NCBI GenBank assembly: GCA_963758835.1
Contig: CAVWWZ010000015.1
Location: 128,249 to 192,248, forward strand
DNA length: 64,000 nt
Direction of reading: 5' to 3'
From: an uncultured Acidobacteriaceae bacterium
GTDB taxonomy: Bacteria > Acidobacteriota > Terriglobia > Terriglobales > Acidobacteriaceae
In this document: positions 19,853-43,234 of the stretch, piece by piece
Layout of the letters: each line of letters starts with the position of its first letter
How positions within the stretch are numbered: the stretch's first letter is position 1
Notes under the pieces: model-generated
What the model was told of the DNA's origin: nothing
What the model saw: the letters and a program-made list of their open reading frames with translations, nothing else
The model's database searches: none
Program-made: the position numbers and the translations under genes

Positions 19853-20094
19853 TAGAAGAGGTCACGCTTCTGCGGTGGCGTCTGATGGCGGTCGCTGAGG
19901 AAATCACTGGGTATGTCGATGGTCTTGAGCAGCTCAAAGAAATCCTGCCACGACTCTGGACGCCGTGACAGAATGACATCGCCGGTGCGAGGATCACGCC
20001 GGACGTAGACTTGGGAACCTTCGAAGCGATACTCGGCGGGCAAGCGTACCGCTTGACTGCGCCCATTGCGAAAGAGCTTTGCCGTTTGCGCCAT
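19852..20094 (-). CDS. vapB: Type II antitoxin VapB (AbrB/SpoVT fold)
   Basis: [24 protein letters not shown] is the SpoVT/AbrB-type motif. A GGAG Shine-Dalgarno sequence lies upstream. The gene overlaps the vapC start by 1 nt. Confidence 0.85.
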
Positions 20095-25520: not shown

Positions 25521-25606
25521 GCTGTCAGCCGTTAGCTCTTAGCTGTTAGCTAGAAGCAGGCAACGACCGCTAGCTAAAAGCTAATGGCTGAATAGCTAAG
25601 AGCCAG
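25521..25606. repeat. Heptad stem-loop module, TTAGCT/AGCTAA flavour (rpsJ|rplC)
   Basis: The left arm is gtcagcc-gttagct-cttagct-gttagct-ag. The right arm is ctagcta-aaagcta-atggctg-aatagcta-agagcc. The arms are complementary with a one-unit slip. Confidence 0.85.
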
Positions 25607-27446: not shown

Positions 27447-27520
27447 CGCAGTAGATCAGTGGCTAGTAGTTAGTGGCTAGAAGCTGCCAGCTAAGAGCGA
27501 GCAGCGAGAAGCGAGTAGGA
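27447..27520. repeat. Heptad-phased run of about 10 units without a clear long stem (rplW|rplB)
   Basis: The units are cagtggc tagtagt tagtggc tagaagc tgccagc taagagc gagcagc gagaagc gagtagg. Confidence 0.75.
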
Positions 27521-29897: not shown

Positions 29898-30022
29898 GCA
29901 GTTGCCAGTGGTCGGTGGTCAGTTGTCAGTGATGAGCCGACGAGACTGCGAGTGGAACTGAGCGAAGAGCAGCTGGAGTTGGACAGCTGGAATTAACTGA
30001 CAACCGACAACTGACAACTGAG
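29898..30022. repeat. Heptad stem-loop module (rpsC|rplP)
   Basis: The left arm is gcagttgccagtggtcggtggtcagttgtcagtg and the right arm is ctgacaaccgacaactgacaactgag. Confidence 0.9.
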
Positions 30023-30031
30023 AACTTCATT

Positions 30032-30448
30032 ATGTTGATGCCAAAGAAAGTTAAGTACCGCAAGCAGCAGCGCGGTCGTATGTGCGGCAAGGCGTGGCGC
30101 GGCGGAGAGCTGTCCTTCGGCGATTTCGGCTTGAAGGTCATGGAGCCGGGCTGGATCACCGACCGGCAGATTGAAGCCAGCCGTGTGGCCATGACGCGTT
30201 TCGTCAAGCGCGGCGGCAAGATCTGGATCCGGCTGTTTCCGGACAAGCCGGTCACCAAGAAGCCGGCCGAAACCCGTATGGGCAAAGGCAAGGGCGCTCC
30301 GGATCATTGGGTAGCCGTGGTGCGCCCGGGCAAGATCCTGTTCGAGATGGAAGGGGTCTCGGTAGCCGATGCGGCCGAGGCAATGCGCCTGGCTTCGCAC
30401 AAGCTGCCGCTGCGCACCAAGTTCGTGCAGCGCGAAGGCGTGCACTAA
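30032..30448 (+). CDS. rplP: 50S ribosomal protein L16 (intact)
   Basis: The protein reads [17 protein letters not shown]...[12 protein letters not shown]...[16 protein letters not shown]. Confidence 0.97.
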
Positions 30449-30450
30449 AA

Positions 30451-30564
30451 GCAGTTGTCAGTGGTCGGTTGTCAGTTGTCAGAGAATCAGCATGGCGATT
30501 GGCAGACTAGTCGGTTCAGTGGCAGCTGACAACTGACAACTGACAACTGACAACCGACAACTGG
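30451..30564. repeat. Heptad stem-loop module; the right arm has 5 units (rplP|rpmC)
   Basis: The left arm is gcagttgtcagtggtcggttgtcagttgtcag and the right arm is cagctg-acaactg-acaactg-acaactg-acaaccg-acaactg-g. Confidence 0.92.
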
Positions 30565-30572
30565 ATTTCAAG

Positions 30573-30885
30573 ATGAATGTAGACAAGATTCGAAACCTGA
30601 CCGATGTCGAACTGACGCATCAGCAGCGCGAGCTGGCTGACCAGCTCTTCAAGATGAAGTTTCAGCTGAAGATGGGACAGACCGAGAGCCTGAAGAAGAT
30701 TCGCGAGCTGAGGAAAGACATTGCGCGCGTCAACACCGTGATGCGCCAGAAGCAGCTTGCCGGCGGCAATGGCGCAGCAGCGGCCAGCAACCGGTCGGCA
30801 AGCCAAGCGCGCCAGCAGCCGGCGAAGAAGACAGCCGACGGCGAAGAAGGCGGCCAAGAAGAAGGCTGCGACGGAGAAAAAGTAA
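30573..30885 (+). CDS. rpmC: 50S ribosomal protein L29 with a Lys/Ala-rich C-terminal tail, frameshifted
   Basis: The protein reads MNVDKIRNLTDVELTHQQRELADQLFKMKFQLKMGQTESLKKIRELRKDIARVNTV. The tail ends ...EKK* at 30883-30885. Confidence 0.85.
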
Positions 30886-31745: not shown

Positions 31746-32092
31746 ATGCAGAAGAGTGTAGATATTCGCCGCAACGATCAGGTGCGGGTGATTACCGGGC
31801 GCGACAAGGGTAAGCAAGGCCGCGTGCTGCGCGTGATGCCGCGACGAGGGCAAGGTGCTGGTCGAGCACGTGATGATGGTGAAGAAGAACGTGCGTCCCA
31901 ATCCGCAGAAAAACATCAAGGGCGGCATTGCCGAGCAGGAGAGCGCGATCTCCATCAGCAACGTGATGCTGATGCTGCAACTCGTGCAACCGGCCGGTGC
32001 GCGTGGGACACGAGAAGCGCGGCGACCGCAACGTGCGTGTGTGCAAGAGCTGCGGCAATCACGCTGGAGAAATAGCGGTTAGCTTGGCTTAG
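31746..32092 (+). CDS. rplX: 50S ribosomal protein L24 with a CxxC...CxxC C-terminal segment, frameshifted; ends at 32075 or 32092
   Basis: The protein reads MQKSVDIRRNDQVRVITGRDKGKQGRVL, then VLVEHVMMVKKNVRPNPQKNIKGGIAEQESAISISNVML, then CNSCNRPVRVGHEKRGDRNVRVCKSCGN in a third frame. Confidence 0.88.
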
Positions 32093-32903: not shown

Positions 32904-33038
32904 GCAGTTGCCGGTAGTCAGTTGACAGTCGAAGCGGCGAGCGACATAAGTTAGCCCAGCGCTTCGAGCTGGTGGATAACAGGATCAAGTCCGAAGGGAC
33001 GGCAGAAGCTAAGAGCTAAAGGCTAACAGCTAAGAGCG
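32904..33038. repeat. Chimeric heptad spacer: CAGTTG-type left module and AGCTAAG-type right module that are not complementary (rplE|rpsN)
   Basis: The left module is gcagttgccggtagtcagttgacagtcg (32904-32931). The right module is gaagctaagagctaaaggctaacagctaagagcg (33005-33038). Confidence 0.85.
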
Positions 33039-33769: not shown

Positions 33770-33903
33770 CAGCTGTCAGCTGATCGGCTGTCAGCCGTCG
33801 AGTCACAGCGCGCTGAAGGACGAGCGCGACGCTCCGACTCAGGATGACAAGGCTGTATTAGAGCTGATAGCTGACAGCTAAGAGCTGACAGCTAAAGGCT
33901 GAA
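33770..33903. repeat. Heptad stem-loop module, CAGCTGT/ACAGCTR flavour (rpsH|rplF)
   Basis: The left arm is cagctgtcagctgatcggctgtcagccgtcgag and the right arm is gagctgatagctgacagctaagagctgacagctaaaggctgaa. Confidence 0.88.
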
Positions 33904-35567: not shown

Positions 35568-35790
35568 ATGGCGCGTATTCGCAAGAAAGAAGTAGTAAAG
35601 GCCGGCCGCGCCGGGAACCAAGATGCAGTTGAAGTGGGTCCGCTCGGCCATTGCGGCTCCGGTGAAGCAGAAGCTGGTGATCAAGGGACTGGGCTTCACC
35701 CGCTTGAACCAGGTCGTGGAGCGGGAAGACACGCCCTCGATCCGCGGCATGGTGGCCAAGGTGCCGCACCTGGTTGAGATCGTAAAATAG
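35568..35790 (+). CDS. rpmD: 50S ribosomal protein L30, frameshifted
   Basis: MARIRKK... is followed by [53 protein letters not shown] in a second frame. The stop TAG is at 35788. Confidence 0.85.
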
Positions 35791-35916
35791 TTGTCAGTTG
35801 CCAGTTGTCAGTTGTCGGTCAGAGGCAATCGGCGAGCTCGAACTACGAGCGGTGGAAAGAGTCGCAAGCCGCGGTTATCGACTGACAACGGACAACTGGC
35901 GACCGACAACTGAAGG
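35789..35916. repeat. Heptad stem-loop module that begins inside the rpmD stop codon (rpmD|rplO)
   Basis: The left arm is (t)agttgtcagttgccagttgtcagttgtcggtcag and the right arm is cgactgacaacggacaactggcgaccgacaactgaagg. Confidence 0.9.
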
Positions 35917-36364: not shown

Positions 36365-36502
36365 GCAGTTGTCGGTTGTCAGTTGCCAGTTGCCAGATCG
36401 GAACTGCAGCGAGCTGATTGCTGACGTGAGCTGAACTGCTAGTTGAGTAGTCAGTTGCGGATTGTCAGCTGACAACTGACAACTGGCAACTGACAACTGA
36501 GG
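36365..36502. repeat. Heptad stem-loop module followed by TTTT (rplO|secY)
   Basis: The left arm is gcagttgtcggttgtcagttgccagttgccag and the right arm is cagctgacaactgacaactggcaactgacaactgagg. There is an inner palindrome ttgtcagctgacaa. Confidence 0.92.
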
Positions 36503-37909: not shown

Positions 37910-38022
37910 GCAGTTGTCAGTTGTCAGCTGGCCAGTTGTCAGTTAAGGCAAGCCTGAACTAGACTGGCAGCTGCATACGGCTAAGCTTAGCTGACAACCG
38001 ACAACTCGCCACTGACAACTGG
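37910..38022. repeat. Heptad stem-loop module followed by TTTTT (secY|adk)
   Basis: The left arm is gcagttgtcagttgtcagctggccagttgtcagtt and the right arm is agctgacaaccgacaactcgccactgacaactgg. Confidence 0.9.
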
Positions 38023-39595: not shown

Positions 39596-39694
39596 GCAGT
39601 GGCCTAGCGTGTGAGCAGCTGGGGTAGGGCGGGAAAAGTTCGAGTCTTCGGGGACGATCAAACTGGCAACTGACCACTGGCAACTGACAACTGA
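39596..39694. repeat. Heptad module with a degenerate left arm and a strong right arm (map|infA)
   Basis: The left arm is gcagtggcctagcgtgtgagcagctgg and the right arm is caaactggcaactgaccactggcaactgacaactga. Confidence 0.8.
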
Positions 39695-39924: not shown

Positions 39925-40000
39925 CAGTTGTCAGTTGCCGGTTGTCAGTCGTCGGCAATCCGGAGCTGACGAACGGACAACTGATAACTGACAACTGAGG
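39925..40000. repeat. Compact heptad hairpin occupying the whole spacer (infA|rpmJ)
   Basis: The left arm is cagttgtcagttgccggttgtcagtcgtcgg, the loop is caatccgga, and the right arm is gctgacgaacggacaactgataactgacaactgagg. Confidence 0.93.
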
Positions 40001-43094: not shown

Positions 43095-43234
43095 GCAGTT
43101 GTCAGTGGCCGGTTGTCAGTTGTCAGTTAGCAACTGAGCAACTGAGCTACTAGCAGCTAGTACGGGCGCGGCTTCAGCGCTGCGCAGACATTTATCAAGT
43201 GCGCGGTTTCAACCGCGACTGACAACTGACAACG
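43095..43234. repeat. Heptad module with a tight proximal hairpin and a distal right arm (rpoA|rplQ)
   Basis: gcagttgtcagtggccggttgtcagttgtcagttagc is directly followed by aactgagcaactgagc. The distal arm is cgactgacaactgacaacg at 43216-43234. Confidence 0.88.

Follow-up and report, generated by a model that had tools for sequence, protein, structure and literature searches.

Stop codons recurring every 7 nt ahead of ribosomal-protein genes in an Acidobacteriaceae genome are probably a side effect of heptamer-repeat hairpin arms

The spacer between the ribosomal-protein genes rplP and rpmC of an uncultured Acidobacteriaceae bacterium contains a hairpin module whose 3′ arm is built of tandem heptamers and carries a stop codon every 7 nucleotides (nt). 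It lies in a stretch of 64,000 nt (assembly GCA_963758835.1, contig CAVWWZ010000015.1, positions 128,249 to 192,248), hereafter the window, in whose coordinates and on whose + strand the features below are given. An earlier note on this DNA had suggested that such arrays, which recur ahead of several start codons of the window, could be selected translational insulators, and had named a by-product of the unit sequence as the alternative. The stop arrays are real, though they were overstated in that note. Our analysis suggests that they are probably a side effect of heptamer-repeat hairpin arms and not a barrier shaped by selection; the alternative named in the note proved the better reading in view of stop-less arms, chance placement of stop-less units and weak conservation of TGA.

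A stop triplet located inside a tandemly repeated heptamer recurs every 7 nt by arithmetic. The arrays are the A+C-rich 3′ arms of hairpin inserts, in which a unique loop separates them from a G+T-rich 5′ arm; each insert occupies the space from the stop codon of a gene to the following ribosome-binding site. Pairing of the arms in the operon mRNA would give a stem of 25–35 base pairs (bp), loop the insert out and bring the stop codon close to the start region that follows. By analogy with the intervening sequences of 23S rRNA, the stem of the heptad hairpins is a candidate, and plausible, substrate of RNase III.

The rplP–rpmC module and its class

The module begins 3 nt past the TAA stop codon of rplP (30446–30448), a position at which TAA or TAG is found in 13 congeners. 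Its 5′ arm (30452–30482) consists of the units CAGTTGT, CAGTGGT, CGGTTGT and CAGTTGT followed by CAG, and is free of stop codons. A unique loop of 43 nt (30483–30525) separates it from the 3′ arm (30526–30563), in which four CTGACAA units are followed by CCGACAA and a terminal CTG; Tandem Repeats Finder returned a period of 7, 5.4 copies and 93% matches for this arm. TGA triplets are located at 30527, 30534, 30541 and 30548, that is, at a spacing of 7/7/7 and in frames 2, 0, 1 and 2, and all three reading frames are closed. The final two junctions of the arm (CCGA and CTGG) are stop-less. The start codon of rpmC (30573–30575) follows 9 nt past the arm, and the start region is unpaired in the predicted fold of the module (−61.9 kcal/mol, z = −6.3). 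The loop shows no similarity to other loops or to loci of PF05635, the 23S rRNA intervening-sequence protein family, and holds no PF05635 open reading frame; the site lies between rplP and rpmC and not in 23S rRNA.

The module was found in 13 of the 14 genomes of the genus, with 1–5 units per arm and loops of ~20 to ~250 nt. It is missing in congener G164 and in relative L001, where rplP and rpmC are separated by a gap of 10–11 nt with an ordinary Shine–Dalgarno sequence, and is an insertion polymorphism. In nearly all of the 13 congeners the two units closest to the rpmC start codon are stop-less (AACCGACAACTGG), and the congeners alternate CAACTGA with TAACTGA units.

Since 7 = 1 mod 3, as the earlier note correctly reasoned, three stop-bearing units close three reading frames. 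The focal arm provides three consecutive units of this kind; only two arms of the window hold three TGA units in succession. The pattern TGA-N4-TGA-N4-TGA occurs three times in the window, in two arms, versus 0.34 expected from shuffles, and TRR-N4-TRR-N4-TRR occurs 45 times versus 9.7 expected. The four TGAs at 30523–30564 are confirmed, but the claim that every RCAACTG unit junction makes TGA was wrong, with four of the six arms cited for it closing two frames only. Judged from its sequence, the arm would halt a stray ribosome that enters the spacer.

Genome-wide, 308 tandem arrays with a period of 7 were counted, versus 98 with a period of 6 and 91 with a period of 8. About one third of the period-7 arrays have a strong inverted partner no more than 300 nt away; a partner score of at least 22 was reached by 109 arrays with the true reverse-complement query versus 5 of 355 with a complement-only control. 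Of 61 inverted heptad modules detected, 60 were kept, the remaining one being a mis-pairing of adjacent modules. The unit families are CAGTTGT/ACAACTG, CAGGTRT/AYACCTG, CAGCTGT/ACAGCTG, GGCTYTT/AARAGCC, CGCYATT/AATRGCG and TAGCAAT/ATTGCTA. Predicted folds of five spacers range from −46 to −69 kcal/mol (z −4.1 to −7.6), with stems that start 2–6 nt past the stop codon and leave the last 10–17 nt before the start codon unpaired. Because an inverted repeat is identical on both strands, the polarity of the arms is intrinsic and independent of gene direction.

When the loops of the 60 modules were compared with each other and with 33 PF05635 loci by blastn-short, no similarity was observed except for one nested pair and one 24-nt match. 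Since the loops are unique sequences, the modules are not copies of one mobile element with a conserved interior, and an origin from a miniature inverted-repeat transposable element (MITE) or a repetitive extragenic palindromic doublet forming a hairpin (REPIN) was rejected on this ground. The idea that the loops are decayed cargo was also rejected, as no PF05635 remnant was found by blastn-short. Given that the arms form regular helices, the interpretation of CUGA or UGAUGA units as C/D-box or kink-turn motifs was dropped as well.

Nested hairpins were observed in some loops. In a compound module at C11:31279–31571, a hairpin of TCAGYCA units lies within the loop of a CAGTTGT/ACAACTG module. 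Small palindromes that form a second family (TTAGCCCAGCRCTTCAGYGCTGGG, GTCCCGTAGGGAC and GCCCCTTCAGGGGC) are found within heptad-module loops of several congeners (loci L125–L137, in the spacers rplP–rpmC and rpsC–rplP), where they enlarge the spacers to about 210–380 nt. The window itself holds a sequence related to these palindromes, TTAGCCCAGCGCTTCGAGCTGG, between rplE and rpsN (32945–32975).

Frame closure, stop excess and competing explanations

Among the 3′ arms of the genome (n = 60), 25 close three frames and 35 do not, 7 of the arms being without any stop codon; the consensus unit is stop-less (GCCAARA, GCGAATG and others) in 19. The placement of stop-less units in mixed arrays corresponds to chance, with 33 closures observed versus 33.0 expected overall, 10 versus 9.0 in this genome and 27 versus 26.6 in Terriglobia. 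Conservation of the focal-family unit is among the lowest at the T (0.80) and A (0.87) of TGA, compared with 0.93–0.98 at A4, C5 and G7. The common variants are transitions, of a kind that could be tolerable by G-U wobble, and the junction AAC[TGA]CAAC is found at 58% in 3′ arms versus 56% in reverse-complemented 5′ arms. In 29 of the 60 modules, the 5′ arm and the loop suffice to close every frame ahead of the 3′ arm, 14 modules keep a frame open throughout, and just 17 depend on the 3′ arm. On this sequence evidence, selection does not seem to maintain three-frame closure as such.

The comparison with shuffled heptads of the same composition that the earlier note had proposed does reveal an excess of stop-bearing units, with 41 of the 60 3′ arms stop-bearing versus 19.4 expected. 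This excess was seen in several forms, and the following observations all weigh against a pure side effect. Among the distinct 3′ units of this genome, 15 of 24 bear a stop codon, versus 7.4 expected from composition-preserving permutation and 9.3 when the purine/pyrimidine pattern is also kept; for Terriglobia including this genome, the count is 40 of 61 versus about 21 expected. Across this genome and the class, z amounts to 4.0–6.8 in composition-preserving permutations, 3.2–5.3 with the purine/pyrimidine pattern kept and 4.3–5.8 in start-free permutations. Twelve of the 13 distinct 3′ units of this genome that contain T and are free of start codons carry a stop, and in the pooled CTGA-type families CTGA is kept at 92% of the 3′-arm core sites versus 83% for TCAG at the 5′-arm sites. 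Of the arrays for which no partner was detected, 19 of 30 that precede a start codon close three frames, versus 7 of 36 that follow a stop codon; these arrays may be remnants of paired modules, and their matching polarity is therefore not decisive for sense-strand specificity. In congener spacers, the 50 nt next to the start codon close all three frames in 8 of 13 and 11 of 14 cases (19 of 27 in total), compared with about 7% in random sequence by our own estimate for that composition. The stop counts also leave room for weak selection for stops, despite the kinship of the unit families considered next.

Most 3′-arm units of this genome carry a stop because of a C-T-R-A core (CTGA, CTAA or CTAG), and the excess arises from the fact that this core is common to evidently related families. 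Since these families are related by descent, the counts are not independent events and the effective cases are few: when we grouped the listed units, they fell into four or five cores with a stop and about four without (CCAA, CGAA, CGAC and GGCC-type). Under the same permutations, 5′ arms show no stop excess. Avoidance of start codons was rejected as the cause, as the excess persists among start-free permutations, and purine-richness was rejected as the sole cause, as the null that preserves purines and pyrimidines lowers z without abolishing the excess.

A further 182 modules with quite different units were identified in ribosomal-protein loci of other Acidobacteriota. The same architecture occurs in other Terriglobia, in Vicinamibacterales, in Bryobacterales (GGGGCCN/NGGCCCC) and in Pyrinomonadaceae/Blastocatellia (AATGATG/CATCATT and GTAAATG/CATTTAC). 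Outside the phylum, most of the 21 loci sampled (Nitrospirota, Chloroflexota and others) lack the architecture entirely or almost so: 18 have at most two period-7 arrays, and two odd loci have seven each. Terriglobia relatives share the 3′-arm stop excess. Blastocatellia-like loci carry their stops in the 5′ arm (3′ > 5′ in 13 modules, 3′ < 5′ in 26), the arms of Bryobacterales are nearly stop-free (1 stop in 8 arms), and elements bearing PF05635 as cargo show no 3′ bias when oriented by this gene (8 versus 9). What all four lineage groups have in common is a 3′ arm with more A+C, and fewer ATG/GTG/TTG triplets, than the 5′ arm. The A+C polarity is 20:0 in the cargo-bearing elements, and the 5′ arm is G+T rich in loci L001–L063 and L084–L123 on both strands. 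In the 3′ arms of this genome, A accounts for 0.36 and T for 0.14, and the rare Ts almost always precede two purines; a T followed by two purines in an A-rich arm produces a stop codon. The start-codon depletion of 3′ arms is accounted for by composition (z −0.3 to −2.0). The arm polarity may reflect avoidance of sequence that resembles start codons or Shine–Dalgarno sites, or of a tail rich in U behind the stem.

These results make it unlikely that the arrays are selected translational insulators, in which stop-bearing heptads would be favoured in the arm adjoining the start codon, so that three or more units would halt ribosomes in any frame ahead of the next cistron, keep read-through from producing fusions and leave the ribosome-binding site unobstructed. 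The excess of stop-bearing 3′-arm units across Terriglobia (z 3–9), the frame closure in partnerless pre-start arrays and the closure close to the start codons of congeners are in line with such a function. Moreover, one off-frame of the ribosomal-protein genes is very stop-poor, with a median open 3′ stretch of 89 nt, so that slipped ribosomes could in principle reach the spacers. However, closure is not preferred in the placement test, the stop positions are among the least conserved of the unit, stop-less 3′ arms and modules with an open frame are frequent, and the 3′ arm is redundant with upstream stops in almost half of the modules. The opposite polarity in Blastocatellia-like lineages, the nearly stop-free arms of Bryobacterales and the lack of a 3′ bias among cargo-bearing elements argue against it as well, as do the two stop-less units by the rpmC start codon across the genus and the location of the stops within a 30-bp helix of the predicted mRNA fold. 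What stands of the insulator reading is the excess of stop-bearing units in 3′ arms, whereas the placement, conservation and polarity tests speak against it. Equally unlikely is a legacy of the cargo, in which the first 3′-arm unit would have supplied the stop codon of a PF05635 gene, slippage would have copied it every 7 nt and cargo-less modules would have inherited the array. The PF05635 frame does end within the first 3′-arm unit in 13 of 32 elements (9 of 23 phylum-wide and 4 of 9 of the same family, including two of the three in this genome) and no more than 14 nt from the arm in 16 of the 23 phylum-wide elements, and cargo-bearing and cargo-less modules of this genome share the arm families GGCTCTT/AAGAGCC and CAGGTAT/ATACCTG. 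Yet some of this coincidence is to be expected in any case, since no open frame can run past an arm in which all frames are closed. In addition, 10 of 23 cargo elements have stop-less 3′ arms, cargo-less loops are without a gene remnant, and this assembly, which is incomplete, yielded no cargo-bearing copy whose arms are CAGTTGT/ACAACTG.

We consider it very unlikely that the 3′ arm is a single-stranded landing pad, which would act as an unstructured leader, for example once a terminating ribosome or RNase III has opened the stem, or as a site for a protein of the S1, Csp or CsrA type, with the stops being incidental. A protein-binding role of this sort was proposed for the TAACTGA repeats of Beggiatoaceae (PMC4679880), and CAACTGA is one base from this unit, whose arrays precede start codons including those of ribosomal-protein genes (PMC4679880). 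The A+C-rich, start-poor composition of 3′ arms in every lineage group would suit such a role, as would the spacers shared by non-complementary post-stop and pre-start arrays, for example 32904–32931 with 33005–33038 and in several relatives. On the other hand, the diversity of units between the spacers of one genome argues against a single sequence-specific binder, and composition alone explains the depletion of start codons. The side effect of hairpin arms is the explanation that we prefer to these three. It is rather unlikely that the stop-bearing 3′ arm is a portable, frame-independent terminator of the insert, which would end the PF05635 frame and stray translation before the ribosome-binding site of the host gene, with Terriglobia keeping the C-T-R-A core by weak selection.

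Other spacers of the window and PF05635 elements

The assembly comprises 3.52 Mb in 31 contigs with a G+C content of 59%, and the window is one stretch of one contig. The host is a metagenome-assembled genome (MAG) of Terriglobia (Acidobacteriota), and the nearest public relatives of its L16 protein are uncultured Acidobacteriaceae/Terriglobia MAGs. The S10, spc and alpha ribosomal-protein operons occupy 25.5–43.3 kb of the window. Between 20600 and 43750, most ribosomal-protein, EF-G, EF-Tu and secY genes are broken over at least two frames, which looks like the result of single-base assembly indels in a nanopore-type MAG. The gene ends before the 5′ arms are real, since those stop codons are kept as TAA/TAG in the congeners. 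Nearly all spacers of the block share a layout in which CAGTTGY-type heptamers, beginning 2–6 nt past the stop codon, are followed by a unique loop and by complementary RCAACTG-type heptamers that end 5–17 nt before the next start codon. Gene-context counts are approximate, as they rely on a crude custom coding-segment caller and an assembly with many frameshifts. An Rfam scan of window positions 20000–45000 gave no match at the gathering threshold.

The arrays of these spacers vary in the number of frames that they close. The RCAACTG arms at 29997–30022, 35879–35916, 36466–36502 and 39659–39694, for which the earlier note had claimed a TGA at every unit junction, close two frames each, because the variants CCGA, CGGA and CTGG lack a stop; at 36466–36502 this holds even with four TGAs. 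The arm at 39965–40000 does close three frames. So does the AGCTAAR arm, with TAA at 33010, 33017, 33024 and 33031 as described, and likewise the TAGs at 25533, 25540 and 25547; those at 32073, 32080 and 32090 indeed occupy three different frames. The TAGs at 27447–27480 had been described as recurring every 7 nt but are spaced 12/3/4/7. The post-stop arms of CAGTTGY type, thought to be free of stops, have none in 6 of 11 cases and one or two sporadic stops in the others.

In the rpsC–rplP module, the 5′ arm (29899–29931) is followed by a 3′ arm (29995–30026) with three TGAs and two frames closed. The rpmD–rplO module has its 5′ arm at 35789–35816 and a 3′ arm at 35880–35911 in which two TGAs, 28 nt apart, close two frames; two frames are open across the entire module. 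In the rplO–secY module (5′ arm 36366–36396, 3′ arm 36469–36500), four TGAs close two frames, and the terminal CTGAGG of the 3′ arm overlaps the Shine–Dalgarno-like GAGG of secY. The pre-start array of infA (39661–39694) has three TGAs and closes two frames. The infA–rpmJ module (39925–39998) is a single 73-nt hairpin with a predicted energy of −45.9 kcal/mol, whose 3′ arm (39966–39998) closes three frames. Stops are found in both arms of the rpsJ–rplC module (25525–25603), which combines a 5′ arm of TTAGCTC type (three TAGs) with a 3′ arm of AGCTAAR type. The rpsH–rplF module (33770–33902) has a CAGCTGT-type 5′ arm and a 3′ arm of AGCTGAC and AGCTAAG units with seven stops and three frames closed. 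Past secY, a module at 37911–38021 contains two TGAs in its 3′ arm (37991–38021), which close one frame, and the 3′ arm (43218–43233) of the rpoA–rplQ module (43096–43233) also has two TGAs.

Some spacers are chimeric. In the window, the pre-start AGCTAAR array of rpsN (33005–33038), with its four TAAs and three closed frames, is non-complementary to the CAGTTG-type post-stop array at 32904–32931. Spacers that combine a post-stop CAGTTG or GTCGTTG array with a non-complementary pre-start AGCTAAG array were observed at 32904–33038 of the window and in the relatives L005, L007, L009 and L010. Several related genomes thus show this arrangement, in which either array retains the polarity that its position usually has.

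The three PF05635 genes of this genome all lie between inverted heptad arms (L081–L083, at C1:72250–72810, C28:49390–49860 and C12:76440–76950), which are GGCTCTT..AAGAGCC twice and CAGGTAT..ATACCTG once. Each of these elements is inserted between a stop codon and the start codon of the next gene. Phylum-wide, PF05635 is present in 87 of 151 sampled Acidobacteriota genomes, and inverted period-7 arms enclose 23 of 33 sampled copies as well as 9 of 10 further copies of the same family. The heptad inserts are the same kind of structure as that enclosing PF05635 genes. At locus L118 (G135:C11), the PF05635 gene is preceded by an unusually long and nearly perfect AGAGAAC array, with at least about 16 units, whose partner arm has only four TGATCTC units and begins at the stop codon of this gene.

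A match to the RNase III domain (PF14622, PF00636) was not obtained in this assembly, which is probably incomplete at 3.5 Mb compared with 4.3–5.7 Mb in congeners. PF00636 is present in 12 of 12 relatives.

Relation to known heptanucleotide repeats

TAACTGA heptanucleotide direct repeats have been described just upstream of start codons, including those of ribosomal-protein operons, in marine Beggiatoaceae, some Cyanobacteria and Bacteroidetes (MacGregor, 2015; PMC4679880). In forward orientation they translate to LITDN followed by a stop, so that there is no read-through, and 169 sets are direct and one is indirect (PMC4679880). The arrays described here resemble these repeats in having tandem 7-nt units in the stop-giving orientation a few nucleotides before start codons. 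The focal unit CAACTGA (ACAACTG) is one base off TAACTGA, which is itself a minority variant here, at 39982–39991 and in congeners. In contrast to the unpaired sets of a single unit, the arrays here are mostly one arm of an inverted pair, belong to many unit families, a third of which are stop-less, and occur in another phylum. Stops in every frame of a pre-start heptamer array have already been recorded for TAACTGA, though not as an insulator, and the present arrays are a new instance.

Between co-directional genes, heptameric repeats of GGGAATC in Xanthomonas and of GGGGAYT in Nostoc are found more often than expected (Rehm et al., 2015; PMC4692102). They are strand-biased, located no more than 50 bp from stop or start codons, often arranged as convergent inverted pairs able to form stem-loops, and mostly transcribed; stop codons within these heptamers are not discussed there (PMC4692102). 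Convergent inverted pairs of heptamers between co-directional genes are thus a feature that they share with the modules of this genome. They differ in being rich in G-tracts and forming G-quadruplexes, whereas CAGTTGT/ACAACTG has no run of three or more G.

Short tandemly repeated repetitive (STRR) heptamers occur in heterocystous cyanobacteria, and heptanucleotides are also known as long simple-sequence repeats. According to the accounts given in two later papers, such intergenic tandem heptamers form the dominant class of long simple repeats (Mrazek et al., 2007, as cited in PMC4679880 and PMC4692102). The STRR heptamers have other unit sequences and occur in other taxa than the repeats studied here. 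To our knowledge, descriptions of STRR and of these simple repeats include neither an inverted-arm architecture nor the packing of essential operons.

A further parallel is provided by the intervening sequences of 23S rRNA. The Coxiella element combines a terminal stem of 28 bp with an S23p open reading frame and three tandem GACAGAT heptamers that vary in number, and is excised by RNase III (PMC4990558). Like the intervening sequences with S23p/PF05635 in Coxiella, Leptospira and others, the modules have terminal inverted repeats, a long stem and a loop that sometimes holds PF05635. Unlike them, they sit in mRNA spacers of protein genes and not in helix 25 or 45, and the focal module is free of cargo.

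If the stops were selected, they would constitute a natural translational insulator derived from a simple repeat, and a compact principle for packing foreign inserts into essential operons. A portable terminator, if this reading were true, would let hairpin inserts settle in essential operons without giving rise to fusion proteins. The finding raises the question of why heptamer hairpins with G+T-rich and A+C-rich arms fill the spacers of ribosomal operons in several lineages of Acidobacteriota, and of how they are tied to PF05635.

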